A DNA stretch of 64,000 nucleotides from positions 9,779 through 73,778 of the forward strand of contig JAPUFX010000066.1 of assembly GCA_027293415.1 (NCBI GenBank). The letters are read 5' to 3'. The position numbers were made by a program, and so were the translations under genes. This document shows positions 10,132 to 64,000 of the stretch, one piece after another. The notes under the pieces are model-generated. The model was not told the origin of the DNA. It saw only the letters and a list, made by a program, of their open reading frames with translations, and made no database searches. The first letter of the stretch is position 1, and each line of letters opens with the position of its first letter. Origin of the DNA: Candidatus Methylomirabilota bacterium (GTDB lineage Bacteria > Methylomirabilota > Methylomirabilia > Methylomirabilales > CSP1-5).

Positions 10132-10207
10132 AGGCCAGTAGCTCAATTGGCAGAGCACCGGTCTCCAAAACCGGCGGTTGGGGGTTCAAGTCCCTCCTGG
10201 CCTGCCA
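10132..10207 (+). tRNA. tRNA-Trp (anticodon CCA)
   Basis: Acceptor stem aggccag/ctggcct, anticodon loop ct-CCA-aa, T-loop GGTTCAAGTCC, and CCA. Confidence 0.92.
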
Positions 10208-10212
10208 GATGA

Positions 10213-10290
10213 GTTCAGGGTTGAGAGTTCAGCGTTCAGAGCTTGGGAGCTTCGGTTCTGCTCTGAACCATGAACCGTGAACTGTGAACC
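10213..10290. repeat. Heptad inverted repeat, class A (GTTCAGR words)
   Basis: Left arm GTTCAGG GTTGAGA GTTCAGC GTTCAGA GC. Right arm GC TCTGAAC CATGAAC CGTGAAC TGTGAAC. The inner 9 bp pair perfectly. Confidence 0.8.
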
Positions 10291-10304
10291 CCGGAGGGAA
10301 GTCG

Positions 10305-11055: not shown

Positions 11056-11062
11056 AGAAAAG

Positions 11063-11138
11063 CAGTCAGCAATCAGCCGTCAGCGACCAGCAAGATCAAG
11101 AGGAAATTCAGTGCTGACAGCGGACTGCTGATGGCTGG
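11063..11138. repeat. Heptad inverted repeat, class B
   Basis: Left arm CAGTCAGCAATCAGCCGTCAGCGACCAGC. Right arm GTGCTGACAGCGGACTGCTGATGGCTGG. Confidence 0.75.
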
Positions 11139-11576: not shown

Positions 11577-11579
11577 ATA

Positions 11580-11744
11580 CAGCTATCAGCTGTCCACTGT
11601 CCGCAGAGAACAGCTGGAAGGCCAGGAGGCTGGGACGCTAGAACACGAGAACGGGTGGATGCCGAATTCCTTGTTTGGGTTCGTGCTTTCCAGCTTACGA
11701 GCGTTCTAGCATCCCAGCAGTTTATTACGGACTACTGATAGCTG
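11580..11744. repeat. Nested long-range inverted repeat with class B words in the rplK-rplA spacer
   Basis: Outer pair cagctatcag (11580-11589) with ctgatagctg (11735-11744). Inner pair gctgggacgctagaac (11629-11644) with gttctagcatcccagc (11703-11718), 15 of 16 complementary. Confidence 0.7.
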
Positions 11745-11766
11745 GCAGCTTTGCTGGAGGAAAGGG

Positions 11767-24941: not shown

Positions 24942-24989
24942 ACGCCCCCTTTTTCTCAGATGGCGACCACAGTAATTTCCATTGCGATT

Positions 24990-25033
24990 TCAGCAGCCCA
25001 GCCCATGAAGTTGACTGCTTGTAGCTGACGGCG
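24990..25033. repeat. Degenerate class B-like word run in the fusA-rpsJ spacer
   Basis: tcagcagcccagc ... gactgcttgtagctgacggcg. Only weak arm complementarity. Confidence 0.3.
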
Positions 25034-25052
25034 GAGGACGGAGAGCCCAGGG

Positions 25053-25361: not shown

Positions 25362-25362
25362 T

Positions 25363-25452
25363 GTCCACAGTCCAAAGTCCAAGGTCGAAAAAGAGCAAAA
25401 CACCTGGTGACTTTGGACGTTGGACATTGGGCATCAGACAGACGTTGGACAT
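25363..25452. repeat. Heptad inverted repeat, class C (GTCCAAN words)
   Basis: Left arm GTCCACA GTCCAAA GTCCAAG GTC. Right arm GACTTTG GACGTTG GACATTG, plus an extra GACGTTGGACAT at 25441-25452. Confidence 0.8.
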
Positions 25453-27102: not shown

Positions 27103-27186
27103 CAACTGGCAATCTGCTGTCTGCTATCTAGCTCTTCTCAAGGAAATGTTGACTGCTGATGGCTGACAGCTGGCAGCTGAAGAGCG
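27103..27186. repeat. Heptad inverted repeat, class B
   Basis: Left arm GCAACTG GCAATCT GCTGTCT GCTATCT AGC. Right arm GCTGATG GCTGACA GCTGGCA GCTGAAG AGC. Starts directly after the rplW stop. Confidence 0.75.
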
Positions 27187-32023: not shown

Positions 32024-32030
32024 CTTGCCA

Positions 32031-32117
32031 GTTCAGAGTTCATGGTTCACAGTTCAGGGTCGGGTGAGCACGATGACCTTGTACAAGTCCCTGAATCATG
32101 CACCGTAAACCCTGAAC
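32031..32117. repeat. Heptad inverted repeat, class A
   Basis: Left arm GTTCAGA GTTCATG GTTCACA GTTCAGG GTC. Right arm CCTGAAT CATGCAC CGTAAAC CCTGAAC. Confidence 0.8.
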
Positions 32118-32524: not shown

Positions 32525-32528
32525 CGAC

Positions 32529-32597
32529 AGTCCGACGTCCACAGTCCAAGGTCCAACGTCGGTAATGGGAAAGGTCCTGTGACTTTGGACTTCGGAC
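32529..32597. repeat. Heptad inverted repeat, class C
   Basis: Left arm AGTCCGAC GTCCACA GTCCAAG GTCCAAC GTC. Right arm GGTCCTGT GACTTTG GACTTCG GAC. Confidence 0.8.
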
Positions 32598-32614
32598 CCT
32601 TTAGGGTGATTACG

Positions 32615-36511: not shown

Positions 36512-37301
36512 GACGGTCAAACTGCCGCTCCGCAGTCCCATAGAGTACAAAGCACTGTGGGAGGTGGATCGTATAGGTCAGGCCAGCCGGCTCGTTGCCG
36601 AGGCGTTGTTGGCCCTCCGGGAGGAGAGCCAACCCGGGGTGAAGACGGCAGAACTCGATCGTTTTGCCGAGGCCTTTCTCCTCGAACGGGGAGCGCAAGC
36701 TGCCTTCAAGGGATACCGGGGTTATCCGTGTACCGTGTGCACCTCGGTAAACGAAGAGGTAGTGCACGGTCTTCCCTCCGAGCGCAGGCTTCAGGAAGGA
36801 GAGATCGTGAGTTTAGACCTTGGGGCGATTGTGGAAGGGTATTATGGAGATGCGGCGCTGACCGTTCCTGTCGGGGAAATTTCTCCAGAAGCGAGGCGAC
36901 TCCTCGAGGTCACCCGCGAGGCACTGCACCGCGGGATCGCGGCAGCGGTGTCTGGTCAGCACCTGACAGATATCTCCCATGCGATTCAGACTCACGTGGA
37001 GGCTGATGGCTTCTCGGTGGTTCGGATCTTCGTTGGGCATGGAATTGGGCGGGCCCTACACGAAGAGCCTCAAATCCCCAACTTTGGCCCCCCGGGTCGT
37101 GGGCCACTCCTGAAGCCTGGAATGGTTCTGGCCATTGAACCCATGGTGAATGCCGGGACCCACGAGGTGACCATCCTCGAGGATCGATGGACCGCGGTGA
37201 CCCAGGATGGTTCGCTGTCTGCCCACTTTGAGCACACGATTGTCATCACCGAAAAGGGCCCCGAAATTCTCACCCGTTCCGAAACGGGAGAAACTTGGTA
37301 G
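36480..37301 (+). CDS. map: Type I methionine aminopeptidase
   Basis: Conserved metal ligands ([24 protein letters not shown]). The start is uncertain: TTG 36480 or TTG 36501, both overlapping the adk end. Confidence 0.9.
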
Positions 37302-37308
37302 GAGGTCG

Positions 37309-37602
37309 ATGCGCAAGAGGTCCGCTGGACAGCGCAGAAAGAGGTCCGCTGGACAGCGCAAAAAGAAGTCCGCTGGACAAACCCAAAAGAAGGAAGAGGC
37401 GATCGAGGTCGAAGGGACCGTGGTCGAGCCCTTGCCGAACGCCATGTTTCGGGTGGAGTTCGAGACGGGCCACAAAGTGCTGGCCCACATATCGGGGAAG
37501 ATGCGGATGCATTTTATCCGGATCCTCCCGGGGGATAAAGTTATTGTGGAGCTCAGTCCCTACGATCTGAGCCGAGGTCGCATCATTTATCGCCATAAGT
37601 AG
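37309..37602 (+). CDS. infA: Translation initiation factor IF-1 with a repeat-encoded basic N-terminal extension
   Basis: ATG 37309 after AGGAGGT. The conserved core is [68 protein letters not shown]. It is preceded by [28 protein letters not shown]. No in-frame start lies closer to the core. Confidence 0.9.
37315..37386 (+). repeat. 24-bp tandem repeat x3 inside the infA 5' coding region
   Basis: Copy 1: aagaggtccgctggacagcgcaga. Copy 2: aagaggtccgctggacagcgcaaa. Copy 3: aagaagtccgctggacaaacccaa. Confidence 0.9.
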
Positions 37603-37604
37603 TT

Positions 37605-37677
37605 GTCGGCTGTCAGCAGTCCGCAGTCAGCTTTGACCCGCGATAGTAATTGCTGACAGCTGATGGTTGACAGCAGG
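37605..37677. repeat. Heptad inverted repeat, class B
   Basis: Left arm GTCGGCT GTCAGCA GTCCGCA GTCAGCT. Right arm GCTGACA GCTGATG GTTGACA GCAGG, running into the rpmJ SD AGGAGG. Confidence 0.8.
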
Positions 37678-37685
37678 AGGCTGAA

Positions 37686-37799: not shown

Positions 37800-37863
37800 C
37801 GCAGACAGAAGACCGATGACCGTCGTAACCGGGTCGTCGATCAACGGATGACGAGGAGGACAA

Positions 37864-44212: not shown

Positions 44213-44217
44213 TGTCA

Positions 44218-44280
44218 GTCTAAGGTCCAACGTCCAAGGTCCAACGGTACGGCACCATGTAACATAGACGTTGGACCTTT
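44218..44280. repeat. Heptad inverted repeat, class C
   Basis: Left arm GTCTAAG GTCCAAC GTCCAAG GTCCAAC GGT. Right arm GACGTTGGACCTTT. Confidence 0.78.
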
Positions 44281-44296
44281 CGTGAGAGGGAGACGA

Positions 44297-58390: not shown

Positions 58391-58513
58391 GGGGCGGTTC
58401 GGGAAAGGCCTCCTCATCGTCCTCTCCTCCCTCCGAGGTCGGCCTTCCCCTCACCGCTGACGCGGTACTAGCAGCGGTCCACTTGAGGCATTGGAGTAAT
58501 TGGAGTAATTTGG

Positions 58514-58536
58514 TGACAGCTGATCGCTGACAGCTC
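58514..58536. repeat. Class B word run (single arm) before purS
   Basis: tgacagc tgatcgc tgacagc tc, immediately upstream of the purS SD GGGAG. The 9-nt tandem ttggagtaa x2 at 58491-58508 lies next to it. Confidence 0.5.
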
Positions 58537-61745: not shown

Positions 61746-63044
61746 ATGAAGACCATCAATATCGGCCTCGTGGGTTTCGGGACGGTCGGAGTCGGGGTAG
61801 TGAGGCTGTTCCAGGACCAGGCCGTGCTGCTCGAGCGACGTGTGGGGGCGCGACTCCTGGTCAAGCGGATCGCCGATATCGACCTCGCGAGGGTGCGAGA
61901 CGTGGAGGTGGATCCTAATGTCCTTACCTCGGATGCGCGAGAGGTCACCGAGGATAAGACAATCGACATCGTGATCGAGCTCATCGGGGGTACCACAGTG
62001 GCTCGCGACGTGGGGCTTGCGGCGCTGAGGAATGGGAAGCACTTGGTCACGGCCAACAAAGCCCTCCTCGCCACCCACGGCCTCGAGCTGTTTAGGGCAG
62101 CGGCCGAACACCGAGTCGATTTAGGATTTGAGGCCAGCGTCTGCGGCGGGATCCCGATCATCCGGGCGGTCCGAGAGGGTCTCGTTGCCAACCGAATCCT
62201 CTCCATTACCGGAATTGTGAACGGTACCTGCAACTATATCCTCACGAAAATGACGGAACTTGGAGCTCCGTTCGCAGAGGTCCTCGAAGAGGCCCAGGTC
62301 AAGGGATACGCCGAGGCAGATCCGTCGCTTGACATCGACGGCATTGATACTGCCCACAAGCTCCAGATCCTCGCCTCGATAGCCTATGGGGGCACCGTGG
62401 ACTTTGATGCCATCCATATCGAGGGGATCCGCGAGGTCGACCCCGCGGATATCCAGTATGCAAAGGAGCTGGGATACCGGATCAAGCTGTTAGCCATCGC
62501 CAAAGAGGCCGATGGCAAGGTCGAGGTACGGGTTCACCCCACCTTGGTCCCCGAAGACCACCTGCTTGCCCCAGTCGGGGGGGTCTATAACGCCGTCTAT
62601 ATCGTGGGTGACGCCACCGGATCCTTGATGTTTTCCGGAAGGGGAGCCGGGCAGATGCCGACGGCCAGCGCCGTCGTCAGCGACGTTGTCGAGATCGCCC
62701 AGAACATCCTCCATGGGCGCCCGTCGAGACCATCGCATGTCCGTGAGATCGCCGGTGAGGGCTTGAGGATTCGACCCATGGAGCAGGTCCGGACCCGGTA
62801 CTACCTGCGGGTGATGGCTGTCGACAAGCCGGGAGTTCTCTCAAAGGTCTCGGGGATCCTTGGAGAGCACGACATCTCTATCGCTTCAGTGATCCAGAAG
62901 GGGCGGCATGCCAAAGCAAGTGTCCCAGTCGTCATGATGACCCACGAGGCGGTGGAGGGAGCGATGCAAAAAGCTCTTGGAGGGATCAAGGCCCTCGATG
63001 CGGTGACGGGGAAGACGATCTGCATCCGTGTCGAGGAAGCCTGA
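61746..63044 (+). CDS. hom: Homoserine dehydrogenase
   Basis: 432 aa. NAD-binding N-terminus GLVGFGTVG, catalytic domain and a C-terminal ACT domain. Confidence 0.94.
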   Translation: MKTINIGLVGFGTVGVGVVRLFQDQAVLLERRVGARLLVKRIADIDLARVRDVEVDPNVLTSDAREVTEDKTIDIVIELIGGTTVARDVGLAALRNGKHLVTANKALLATHGLELFRAAAEHRVDLGFEASVCGGIPIIRAVREGLVANRILSITGIVNGTCNYILTKMTELGAPFAEVLEEAQVKGYAEADPSLDIDGIDTAHKLQILASIAYGGTVDFDAIHIEGIREVDPADIQYAKELGYRIKLLAIAKEADGKVEVRVHPTLVPEDHLLAPVGGVYNAVYIVGDATGSLMFSGRGAGQMPTASAVVSDVVEIAQNILHGRPSRPSHVREIAGEGLRIRPMEQVRTRYYLRVMAVDKPGVLSKVSGILGEHDISIASVIQKGRHAKASVPVVMMTHEAVEGAMQKALGGIKALDAVTGKTICIRVEEA

Positions 63045-63047
63045 TAA

Positions 63048-63158
63048 GTTCACGGTTCAGAGTTCAGAGTTGAGAGTGCAGAGTGCAGAGTTCAGGGAAA
63101 GGATAACACCTTTTTTTTGCTGTTTCAGCGCTGAACCCTGAACCATGAACCCTGAACG
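63048..63158. repeat. Heptad inverted repeat, class A (largest copy)
   Basis: Left arm GTTCACG GTTCAGA GTTCAGA GTTGAGA GTGCAGA GTGCAGA GTTCAGG. The centre contains a T8 run. Right arm GCTGAAC CCTGAAC CATGAAC CCTGAAC. Confidence 0.85.
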
Positions 63159-63162
63159 AAGT

Positions 63163-64000
63163 ATGGAGTTTGGCGTGAGGTGGCACGGCGTTATACATCG
63201 GTATCGGGATTATTTACCGGTGACGGAAAAAACCCCAGTAATCACCCTCCAGGAGGGAAACACCCCCCTGATTCGGGCGGACCGCCTCGGGGAAGCCCTG
63301 GATTCCCGGGTTGAGCTCTTTCTGAAGTTCGAAGGTGCGAATCCCACCGGTTCCTTCAAAGACCGCGGGATGACAGTTGCCATCAGCAAAGCGTTGGAAG
63401 AAAAGATGACCGCGGTCGTCTGCGCCTCTACGGGGAACACCTCCGCTTCGGCTTCCGCGTACGCCGCCCGGGCCGGGTGCCGTGCCTATGTCGTGGTCCC
63501 CAAGGGCAACGTCGCCATGGGGAAGATCTCGCAGGCCCTGGTGCACGGCGCGAGGCTCATCCCGCTGCAGGGCAACTTCGACGAGGCCTTCGAGATCGTC
63601 AAGGAAATCTCAGAAAAGTATCCGGTCGCCTTGGTCAATTCGATTAATCCCTTCCGCATCGAGGGGCAGAAGACGGCTGCTTTCGAGGTCTGCGAGCAAC
63701 TCGAGAGAAGCCCGGACCGTGTGTTTATCCCGGTCGGAAATGCCGGGAATATCAGCGCGTACTGGAAGGGCTTTCGGGAGTACCGAGAGGCGGGACGGAT
63801 TCAGGGCCTTCCCCGGATGATTGGCTGGCAGGCTGAGGGGGCCGCGCCGATAGTGCGAGGAGCGGTGGTGAAGCATCCCGAAACGGTCGCGTCGGCGATT
63901 CGCATCGGCAACCCCGCCAACTGGTCTATGGCGCGGGCAGCCATCGAAGAGTCCCAGGGGGAGATCGGGCTCGTGTCGGATGCCGAGATCCTCGACGCCT
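63163..64000 (+). CDS. thrC: Threonine synthase, 3' end outside window
   Basis: Frame 1 is open to the window end, so it is absent from the ORF track. Hand translation gives [36 protein letters not shown]...[15 protein letters not shown], including the PLP-Lys motif. GTG 63175 is an alternative start. Confidence 0.9.

Follow-up and report, generated by a model that had tools for sequence, protein, structure and literature searches.

Heptanucleotide repeats are the most over-represented long simple repeats in bacteria, and we know of no account of their role and turnover outside a few pathogen contingency genes. In the 5' untranslated region (UTR) of Haemophilus influenzae hmw1A, ten ATCTTTC repeats pair, as the left arm, with a fixed right arm to form a hairpin; this is cleaved by RNase III, and expression falls as the number of repeats rises (PMC12721329). 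Geobacter metallireducens has three classes (classes 1-3) of paired sets of 3-5 tandem 7-9-nt repeats, on opposite strands and separated by variable distances, as in the proB-proA spacer, which Aklujkar et al. (2009) guessed to be binding sites of global regulators (PMC2700814). Tandem heptanucleotide arrays have been described in Beggiatoaceae (TAACTGA; PMC4679880) and in Xanthomonas and Nostoc (GGGAATC / GGGGAYT; PMC4692102, which also cites three repetitive heptanucleotides of Calothrix PCC 7601), and long simple sequence repeats (SSRs), as Mrazek 2007 used the term (summarised in PMC4679880), are head-to-tail 7-nt copies longer than chance would give. A different kind of element, the REP/BIME/REPIN sequences mobilised by RAYT, comprises genome-specific families of short intergenic hairpin repeats in operons that have been proposed to stabilise mRNA (PMC3116915, PMC3733652), the REP unit being a 20-40 bp palindrome that bears GTAG or CGTC as a tag at one of its ends (PMC3733652). 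REP sequences are conserved over their length, and REPIN copies in one genome are alike throughout, the stretch between the two REPs included. Here we present an analysis of a heptanucleotide inverted-array hairpin, designated E10, at positions 63048-63158 of a 64,000-nt stretch of DNA from Candidatus Methylomirabilota bacterium, an uncultured methane oxidiser of the Methylomirabilis group in candidate division NC10 (contig JAPUFX010000066.1, positions 9,779 to 73,778; hereafter the window), where it lies between hom (homoserine dehydrogenase) and thrC (threonine synthase). In our judgement E10 is probably a variable-number tandem repeat (VNTR) hairpin, a transcribed intercistronic stem-loop which is remodelled by slipped-strand mispairing and has at most a generic role at the RNA level.

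Two opposed arrays, built from the unit GTTCAGR and its complement YCTGAAC, occupy the hom-thrC spacer. On the + strand, the left (5') arm at 63048-63096 consists of the seven tandem heptads GTTCACG GTTCAGA GTTCAGA GTTGAGA GTGCAGA GTGCAGA GTTCAGG, and the right (3') arm at 63131-63158 of the four heptads CTGAACC CTGAACC ATGAACC CTGAACG. Tandem Repeats Finder reported the left arm as 63047-63095 with a period of 7 (7.0 copies, 83% matches, score 63) and the right arm as 63131-63157, also with a period of 7 (3.9 copies, 90%). A first interpretation made from the letters alone (hereafter the sequence-only reading) had given seven left-arm heptads, four complementary right-arm ones and a run of eight T at 63111-63118, all of which hold. 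With two mismatches or fewer, GTTCAGRGTTCAGR occurs 20 times in the window, against 1.89 occurrences expected. Within the hairpin centre (63097-63130, + strand), GCTGTTTCAGCG may be a degenerate additional right-arm unit; a homologous centre, with a T7 run, is present in the hom-thrC spacer of contig L086.

The predicted RNA fold of the + strand has a free energy of -45.7 kcal/mol (z -4.15; 0 of 200 shuffles folded as well) and that of the - strand -44.5 kcal/mol (z -5.27). The two arms can pair in several registers, the inverted-repeat pairs being 74-81% complementary over 27-33 nt. When the right arm was forced onto left-arm units 1-4, 2-5, 3-6 and 4-7, the energies were -44.7, -37.5, -33.6 and -32.4 kcal/mol, respectively. 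Thus the alternative registers that the sequence-only reading had envisaged are all stable, but they are not equivalent: the outermost (-44.7 kcal/mol) is the minimum-energy fold and is clearly favoured. In this register it is the basal left-arm units (63048-63068, + strand) that pair with the right arm, and unit 1 is present in every allele described below. The T run had been assigned to the central loop. Its position is as described, but it is not an open loop, because in the RNA folds the T8 run pairs with GGGAAAGG, the GGAAAGG of the centre thereby forming an apical stem.

The inequality of the two arms had been ascribed to replication slippage in a tandem array whose arms expand and contract independently, and comparison of the spacer among strains revealed a unit-number polymorphism which clearly favours slippage. 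Same-species contigs from many metagenomes were recovered by exact-protein look-ups and, as an exact look-up of the window's own hom protein gave no record, from cluster members of the nearest hom homologue; those aligned to the window are 99.1-99.9% identical in DNA. Nine complete spacer alleles were obtained, one being that of the window and the other eight each lying on a contig, with different metagenome samples as their sources. In these eight the hom protein differs from that of the window by three or four residues, and DNA identity is 99.3-99.6% where measured (99.3-99.4% for L181 and L191). Across the nine alleles the left-arm unit counts are 5, 5, 7, 7, 9, 10, 14, 18 and 18, those above about 14 being uncertain in these short-read assemblies, and the units stand in seven distinct orders; the right arm never departs from the same four units. 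Alleles with 5, 7, 9 and 10 units cannot be artefacts of assembly collapse, because the order of their unique units differs. Slippage within the array is thus directly supported, as is the independence of the arms.

The unit that expands is GTGCAGA, present in one or two copies in the short alleles and in up to 15 in the long ones, and eight further contigs break inside the GTGCAGA run. In the window it is represented by the two units at 63076-63089 (+ strand), each with the palindrome TGCA inside. As single-stranded DNA, (GTGCAGA)8 has a folding energy of -8.8 kcal/mol and its complement one of -8.0, whereas the values for (GTTCAGA)8 and (GTTGAGA)8 are 0; GTGCAGA is the sole unit of E10 that folds on itself in this way. 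It is not complementary to the right arm, so its expansion is independent of pairing between the arms; when the alleles are folded as RNA, the GUGCAGA run makes a side branch of its own and the basal, outer stem is retained in each of them. The current instability of E10 is driven by this run of identical units folding on itself, in agreement with the classical view that unstable repeats are the self-structured, uninterrupted ones. The T run is also polymorphic in length among the alleles (T8, TCT7, TCT9). What the sequence-only reading had called gradual word drift is thus no slow decay but the amplification, from 2 to 15 copies, of one variant unit, GTGCAGA. The variants GTTGAGA and GTGCAGR recur in other elements.

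A sister lineage, 97.1-97.8% identical to the window over the aligned flanks of the spacer, provides the complementary case. Its hom-thrC spacer holds an interrupted hairpin of GTCCAAA, GTCCAAC and GTCCAAG units, and its sequence does not differ among eight complete contigs of different samples. Because this interrupted GTCCAAN hairpin does not vary, instability can be tied to runs of identical units, on which it depends.

The window contains at least 12 heptad hairpins, E10 among them, and the majority are inside ribosomal-protein and transcription operons. We detected 14 period-7 arrays, against 0.62 +/- 0.85 in 100 dinucleotide shuffles, and only 0-1 arrays with periods of 4, 5, 8, 10 or 11. 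All 14 are intergenic, and they are paired into hairpins like E10, typically with ~4 units per arm. The family has three main words, GTTCAGR, GTCCAAS and GTCAGCN, and its stems are built alike, with a paired 5-nt core and one or two mismatched linker positions every 7 nt. Placement, judged from the called genes of related contigs, is also uniform: the left arm starts 0-8 nt past the upstream stop codon or tRNA end, and the end of the right arm, which adjoins the Shine-Dalgarno sequence, is 14-22 nt away from the start codon that follows.

Whole-unit changes are found in this family beyond E10. In a comparison of 28 kb in five to seven strains, in which one divergent stretch of one strain was set apart, the only internal indels longer than 1 nt were three exact 7-nt events, all of them in heptad elements and each confined to one arm. 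E1 (10210-10295, + strand; GTTCAGR, 4+4 units, between a tRNA at 10132-10204 and secE) has lost one right-arm unit in one strain; E2 (11061-11135, + strand; GTCAGCN / GCTGACN, between nusG and rplK) has gained one right-arm unit, TGCTGAC, in one strain; and E7 (32529-32600, + strand; GTCCAAN, four left and two right units, between rpsH and rplF) has a third right-arm unit in four strains. The elements have 7.5 single-nucleotide polymorphisms (SNPs) per kb, a density that matches those of coding sequence (9.4/kb) and of other spacers (8.6/kb), so the excess mutability is specific to whole-unit changes. Like E10, these elements change by entire 7-nt units, gained or lost in a single arm at a time, which fits slipped-strand mispairing.

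At the hom-thrC locus the element fills the spacer. The hom gene (61746-63044, + strand) is an open reading frame (ORF) whose orthologous called genes carry the Pfam domains NAD_binding_3, Homoserine_dh and ACT. Its product is identical to P0130 of an NC10 metagenome-assembled genome (MAG), and the best hom matches are from MAGs of the Methylomirabilis group. The stop codon TGA (63042-63044) is directly followed by an in-frame TAA (63045-63047), and E10 begins 3 nt past the hom stop. It ends 6 nt ahead of GGAG (63165-63168, + strand), the thrC ribosome-binding site, itself 6 nt before the likely start codon GTG (63175-63177); relatives have ATG at the equivalent place, and the downstream called gene has a PALP domain. 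The gene callers' pick for the thrC start, ATG 63145 within the right arm, is argued against by comparison with relatives. Rfam search of the window at gathering thresholds found five tRNAs only, with E10 unmatched, and a permissive search of 62900-63300 gave only chance-level matches (E of 2.2 or more), all outside E10. Beyond thrC, same-species strains have a phage-type integrase gene on the opposite strand (L181, 5802-6929; L182, 5767-6876), ~1.5 kb past the end of the window; the hom-thrC operon therefore borders an integrated element.

A scan of 62700-63500 found no promoter-like or terminator-like site. Since no promoter or terminator separates these co-directional genes, both on the + strand, E10 is probably transcribed as part of a hom-thrC mRNA. 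In that mRNA it would form a long imperfect stem-loop whose base would bring the hom stop codon near the thrC ribosome-binding site, and with these two signals at the foot of the stem an insertion of 100-200 nt would be harmless inside the operon. Such a stem-loop might serve as a generic intercistronic RNA hairpin, either as a barrier to exonucleases or as a substrate of RNase III. A stable stem-loop with a run of eight T could also suggest that hom and thrC are separated by an intrinsic terminator or by an attenuator, but we give this next to no credence. The T run is inside the hairpin, where it is paired, and the 62700-63500 interval contains no G+C-rich stem followed by a U run; the length of the T run varies among strains; and the sibling elements separate ribosomal-protein genes that need to be co-transcribed.

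In those species of the Methylomirabilis group whose hom proteins are 64-93% identical, a heptad hairpin is kept in the hom-thrC spacer, with unit numbers of 2+5, 4+4, 4+6-7, and 3-4+8 or more; three close relatives have the left arm in common and 7, 4 and 4 right-arm units. Words found at this site include GTTCAYG, GTCCGAC, GTTCAAC, GTCGAGA and CGATTTT, and across species the two arms co-vary (GTTCA/TGAAC, GTCCA/TGGAC, CGATTTT/AAAATCG). The centres are recognisably homologous in several of the hairpins, including that of L086 with its T7 run; orthologous centres conserved under changed arm words argue for change in place. The hom-thrC spacers of more distant members of the phylum are short and have no heptads.

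These comparisons bear on the possibility that E10 is a tunable cis-regulatory RNA of the hmw1A type, cut by RNase III, in which the unit number would set the expression of thrC (or hom) and generate reversible, heritable variants. The architecture is alike, with a heptad SSR as the 5' arm, a fixed 3' arm and an imperfect stem with periodic mismatches; the right arm abuts the thrC ribosome-binding site, and strain variation is large. However, hom and thrC have housekeeping functions in biosynthesis, for which phase variation would bring no obvious benefit, and like hairpins stand between ribosomal-protein genes, where variable expression would be harmful. The basal stem by the ribosome-binding site is constant whatever the unit number, the sister lineage's hairpin in the same spacer is stable and non-variable, and the more distant relatives have no hairpin at all. 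A dedicated switch of this kind therefore seems to us decidedly unlikely.

Whole words have also been replaced between close relatives. At hom-thrC, GTTCAGR in the window stands against GTCCAAN at 97-98% identity, and in the infA-rpmJ spacer (E8, 37603-37685, + strand; GTCAGCN) the window has GTCAGCN against GTCCAAN at 97.2-97.7% identity, with unrelated centres. In the rpsH-rplF spacer (E7) the GTCCAAN words of the window correspond to GTTCAGA words in a relative of 86% identity. Presence and absence differ between species as well: E4 (25362-25441, + strand; GTCCAAN / TTGGACN, between rpsJ and rplC) is absent in the 86%-identity relative L176, whose spacer there is 12 nt, and L176 has an additional element between rplB and rpsS. 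Multi-unit strings of 20-24 nt, variable positions included, are common to different loci, where the background maximum is 13 nt; for example, 24 nt are common to E5 (27103-27182, + strand; CTGCTNT / GCTGANN, between rplW and rplB) and the E12 insertion of L081, and 20 nt to the left arm of E10 and the rpmJ-rpsM spacer of L207. These identities hint that arms are copied between loci. Against contigs L081, L082, L201 and L206, compared around 63042-63176, the identity of the window is 97.3-97.9% upstream of the spacer (hom side) and 92.6-92.9% downstream of it (thrC side). Because identity drops across the spacer, from 97.8% to 92.7%, a boundary of homologous recombination is likely to lie there. 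The word swap at hom-thrC may thus be explained by such recombination with a lineage that is more divergent.

Such observations could be accommodated by a small non-autonomous mobile element, similar to REPINs or to MITEs (miniature inverted-repeat transposable elements), whose arms are copied by a transposase or by ectopic gene conversion and for which slippage is secondary. This would account for the few words common to many spacers of one genome, for the presence and absence of E4 and of the rplB-rpsS element, for the replacement of whole spacers at 97-98% identity and for the 20-24-nt strings that link different loci; in G. metallireducens, moreover, insertion sequence (IS) elements lie at fixed distances from comparable paired repeats (PMC2700814). 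On the other hand, copies with the same word have no common centre or flank, unlike REPINs and MITEs; tags of the GTAG or CGTC kind and duplicated targets are both lacking; and the 64-kb window showed no transposase close to the elements. Furthermore, orthologous centres are kept despite changed words, both between the window and L176 at the S8-L6 (rpsH-rplF) spacer and in the hom-thrC group, which points to change in place. We regard a mobile element as an unlikely origin of the family.

The same diversity of words bears on the idea, close to that proposed for Geobacter, that a multimeric or nucleoid-associated protein, such as IHF, HU or some global regulator, binds DNA at the arrayed heptads of the arms. 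The paired architecture is that of the Geobacter class 1-3 sites, and the 5-nt cores are conserved while two positions vary. Nevertheless, one genome has at least three to four unrelated words, the words at one spacer differ between relatives of 97-98% identity, and a single array mixes GTTCAGA, GTTGAGA and GTGCAGA; copy numbers, between 5 and 18, show no sign of being constrained, and the elements lie within operons beside ribosome-binding sites, not at promoters. With words so varied and subject to turnover, a sequence-specific DNA-binding protein is disfavoured, and we consider such binding arrays highly improbable. E10 is unlikely to be a sequence-specific regulator.

Several points weigh against the VNTR hairpin that we favour. 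Slippage alone leaves unexplained the few words common to unrelated spacers of one genome, the 20-24-nt strings common to different loci, and the whole-spacer differences, centre included, at 97-98% identity. Rapid word turnover would thus have, besides the amplification of variant units, a second probable route in the copying or recombination of arms between loci and lineages. The alleles come from short-read assemblies, with the uncertainty given above for the longest counts; co-transcription of E10 with hom and thrC, its folding as RNA in vivo and any effect of it on either gene are inferred. On selection for pairing the evidence is mixed. Of 13 orthologous spacers, eight fold far better than shuffles (z of -3.5 to -6.3), and the other five do so marginally or not at all (z -0.55 to -2.9); in three related contigs (L087, L088, L102) the right arm is nearly lost. 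Uneven hairpin quality and the near loss of right arms argue for weak or no selection on pairing. It is on account of this mixed evidence that we prefer to see in E10 a stem-loop that is tolerated and renews itself, its RNA role being generic at most, rather than a dedicated regulator.

The remaining elements of the window conform to the same plan, with some elaborations. E6 (32028-32117, + strand; GTTCANR, 4+4 units) separates rpsN from rpsH, and E9 (44215-44281, + strand; GTCCAAS, four left and ~2 right units) separates rimP from nusA. A weaker element, E11 (37800-37863, + strand; GACCGAT / ATCGGTC), lies between rpmJ and rpsM and has four additional GTTCA-type left-arm units in one relative. 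E3 (11579-11765, + strand), between rplK and rplA, has outer arms of heptads (CAGCTNT type) and an inner long inverted repeat without heptad period; this 190-nt composite looks like a hairpin nested in a hairpin, and the assembly of scaffold L170 both duplicates the region and has gaps in it. E12 (58455-58535, + strand) consists of GCTGACA-type arrays in a divergent intergenic region, just 5' of the purS ribosome-binding site. At E12, a ~40-nt insertion distinguishes two close relatives, and the long contigs of two strains seem to end at 58.5-58.7 kb.

The sense fold is more stable than the antisense fold in seven of ten elements, by a few kcal/mol, with next to no difference in E10 (-45.7 against -44.5), a comparison that is not decisive for a role at the RNA level. 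The order is always word-then-complement, the opposite arrangement (TGAAC...GTTCA) never having been seen. Orientation was considered as a strand indicator and dropped, as a word-then-complement hairpin reads alike on both strands. A role as an all-frame stop-codon insulator was also rejected: the right arms of GTTCAGR and GTCAGCN elements have TGA every 7 nt, but the GTCCAAS elements lack a stop codon. GTTCRA resembles the tRNA T-loop, and GTTRRRY/RYYYAAC are the core sites of attC. Mimicry of the tRNA T-arm and membership of the integron attC sites were set aside as resemblance only, the motif order being opposite to that of attC and the flanking genes being those of core operons. A TCAG/CTGA core is present in many otherwise unrelated words (GTTCAGA, GTCAGCA, MTYCTGA, TAACTGA and the TCAGCNN of L068), those of E1, E2, E5, E6, E8 and E10 in the window and of the published Geobacter and Beggiatoaceae repeats among them. 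This common core, the likeness to the T-loop and the position of E1 directly after a tRNA may each be coincidence or a clue to mechanism.

Tandem Repeats Finder scores a 14-nt period above the 7-nt one at 10211-10241, 11061-11092, 32031-32060, 32527-32555 and 44218-44246, because two unit variants alternate there (e.g. GTCCAAG GTCCAAC); this suggests that slippage or duplication of two units occurs too. The fusA-rpsJ spacer (24942-25052) is ~54 nt longer than in L176 (86% identity), and the extra part, with its degenerate CAGCNNC / GCTGACN units, is probably a decayed heptad element at the position of the S10 leader. Between map and infA, at 37315-37392, there is a tandem repeat of a different kind, ~3 copies of the 24-nt AAGAGGTCCGCTGGACAGCGCAAA. 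It is in frame with an extended infA ORF (37207-37602) and would give IF-1 a K/R-rich N-terminal extension, RKRSAGQ x3; gene callers disagree on the infA start (66 or 97 residues), and strains show SNPs in this repeat.

Inverted arrays in the same placement, from the stop codon to the next ribosome-binding site, were found at loci of Nitrospirota (L016, L019, L020), of Geobacteraceae (L033, L041, L053, L061, including an isolate genome of Geomonas oryzae), of other Desulfobacterota (L027, L059, L068) and in L069. The words there are lineage-specific, among them GCGGAAT, GTTCTAC, GTGCGAC, TCAGCNN and AGTTTGG. L033 and L053 have different words at what is apparently the same gene pair, and L053 and L059 have single arrays of ~20 units. 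One may ask whether inverted heptad-array hairpins constitute a distinct intercistronic class across Methylomirabilota, Nitrospirota and Desulfobacterota, renewed by slippage, exchanging arms, and read at the RNA level (e.g. by RNase III) with the repeat number then tuning the relative output of genes within core operons; this larger proposal we hold to be doubtful. If true, it would provide free-living, non-pathogenic bacteria with an operon-internal analogue of contingency loci.

Whatever the status of that proposal, the hom-thrC locus is an unusually clean natural experiment, in which one arm varies from 5 to 18 units, the other is fixed and the flanks are near-identical, and in which the unit that expands is self-folding while interrupted arrays at that site are stable. 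Because the architecture recurs between essential ribosomal-protein genes in three phyla, the elements are either very well tolerated in the highest-expressed operons or contribute to mRNA processing. In practical terms, the hom-thrC spacer is a high-resolution strain marker for Methylomirabilis populations and a predictable breakpoint of short-read assemblies.

The known systems introduced at the outset each match E10 in part. It qualifies as an SSR or VNTR: its tandem heptanucleotide copies are longer than chance would give, and strains, as represented by short-read assemblies, differ by whole units. REP and REPIN sequences are likewise short hairpin-forming repeats present in many copies in the intergenic spacers of operons. 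The elements described here differ from them in that only the 7-nt word is common, the centres are unrelated, the tag is missing and change proceeds by whole-unit slippage. The flanks of E10 (TGATAA|GTTCACG and CTGAACG|AAGTAT) bear no tag, and the GTAG beside E8 is the conserved end of infA. Also, E1, E6 and E10 share their arm words and nothing more, the longest common string being 14 nt and located within the arms. Membership of the REP/REPIN group was rejected on these grounds.

Like the heptanucleotide arrays of cyanobacteria, Beggiatoaceae and Xanthomonas, the elements are intergenic, often directly 5' of start codons, and occur in ribosomal-protein operons, and in both cases length and sequence differ between close relatives at one spacer. 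Those arrays include a few inverted pairs, but nearly all are direct (169 direct sets and one indirect set in a Beggiatoaceae genome), whereas here inverted pairs are the rule. With classes 1-3 of Geobacter, E10 has in common the paired tandem units on opposite strands, at variable distance and in an intergenic position; each genome has several word classes, and those of Geobacter are absent from the sister species. The Geobacter consensus sequences GTTGCTYN, TCTCCGTS(Y) and MTYCTGA are not matched by GTTCAGR, GTCCAAS or GTCAGCN, the CTGA/TCAG core, in common with class 3, being all that is shared. Those classes were presented as alignments with a speculative DNA-binding role, without strain copy numbers and without a hairpin or RNA interpretation.

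In architecture E10 comes nearest to hmw1A and hmw2A: just upstream of a gene, a heptad SSR of variable copy number serves as left arm and a fixed sequence as right arm in a hairpin that is long and imperfect. The copy number varies among strains in both systems, and the position is non-coding and transcribed in Haemophilus, as it would be in E10. The right arm of hmw1A is a G-rich tract, that of E10 an inverted array of its own unit; hmw1A is a contingency locus for a surface adhesin, while E10 stands between housekeeping genes and has many siblings in core operons; and RNase III cleavage and the effect on expression are experimental results in hmw1A and hypothetical in E10. The hmw1A heptad hairpin is the closest tested counterpart of E10. 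E10 itself is a fast-evolving heptanucleotide SSR in the form of an inverted-array hairpin, a kind of element that is widespread but poorly described.

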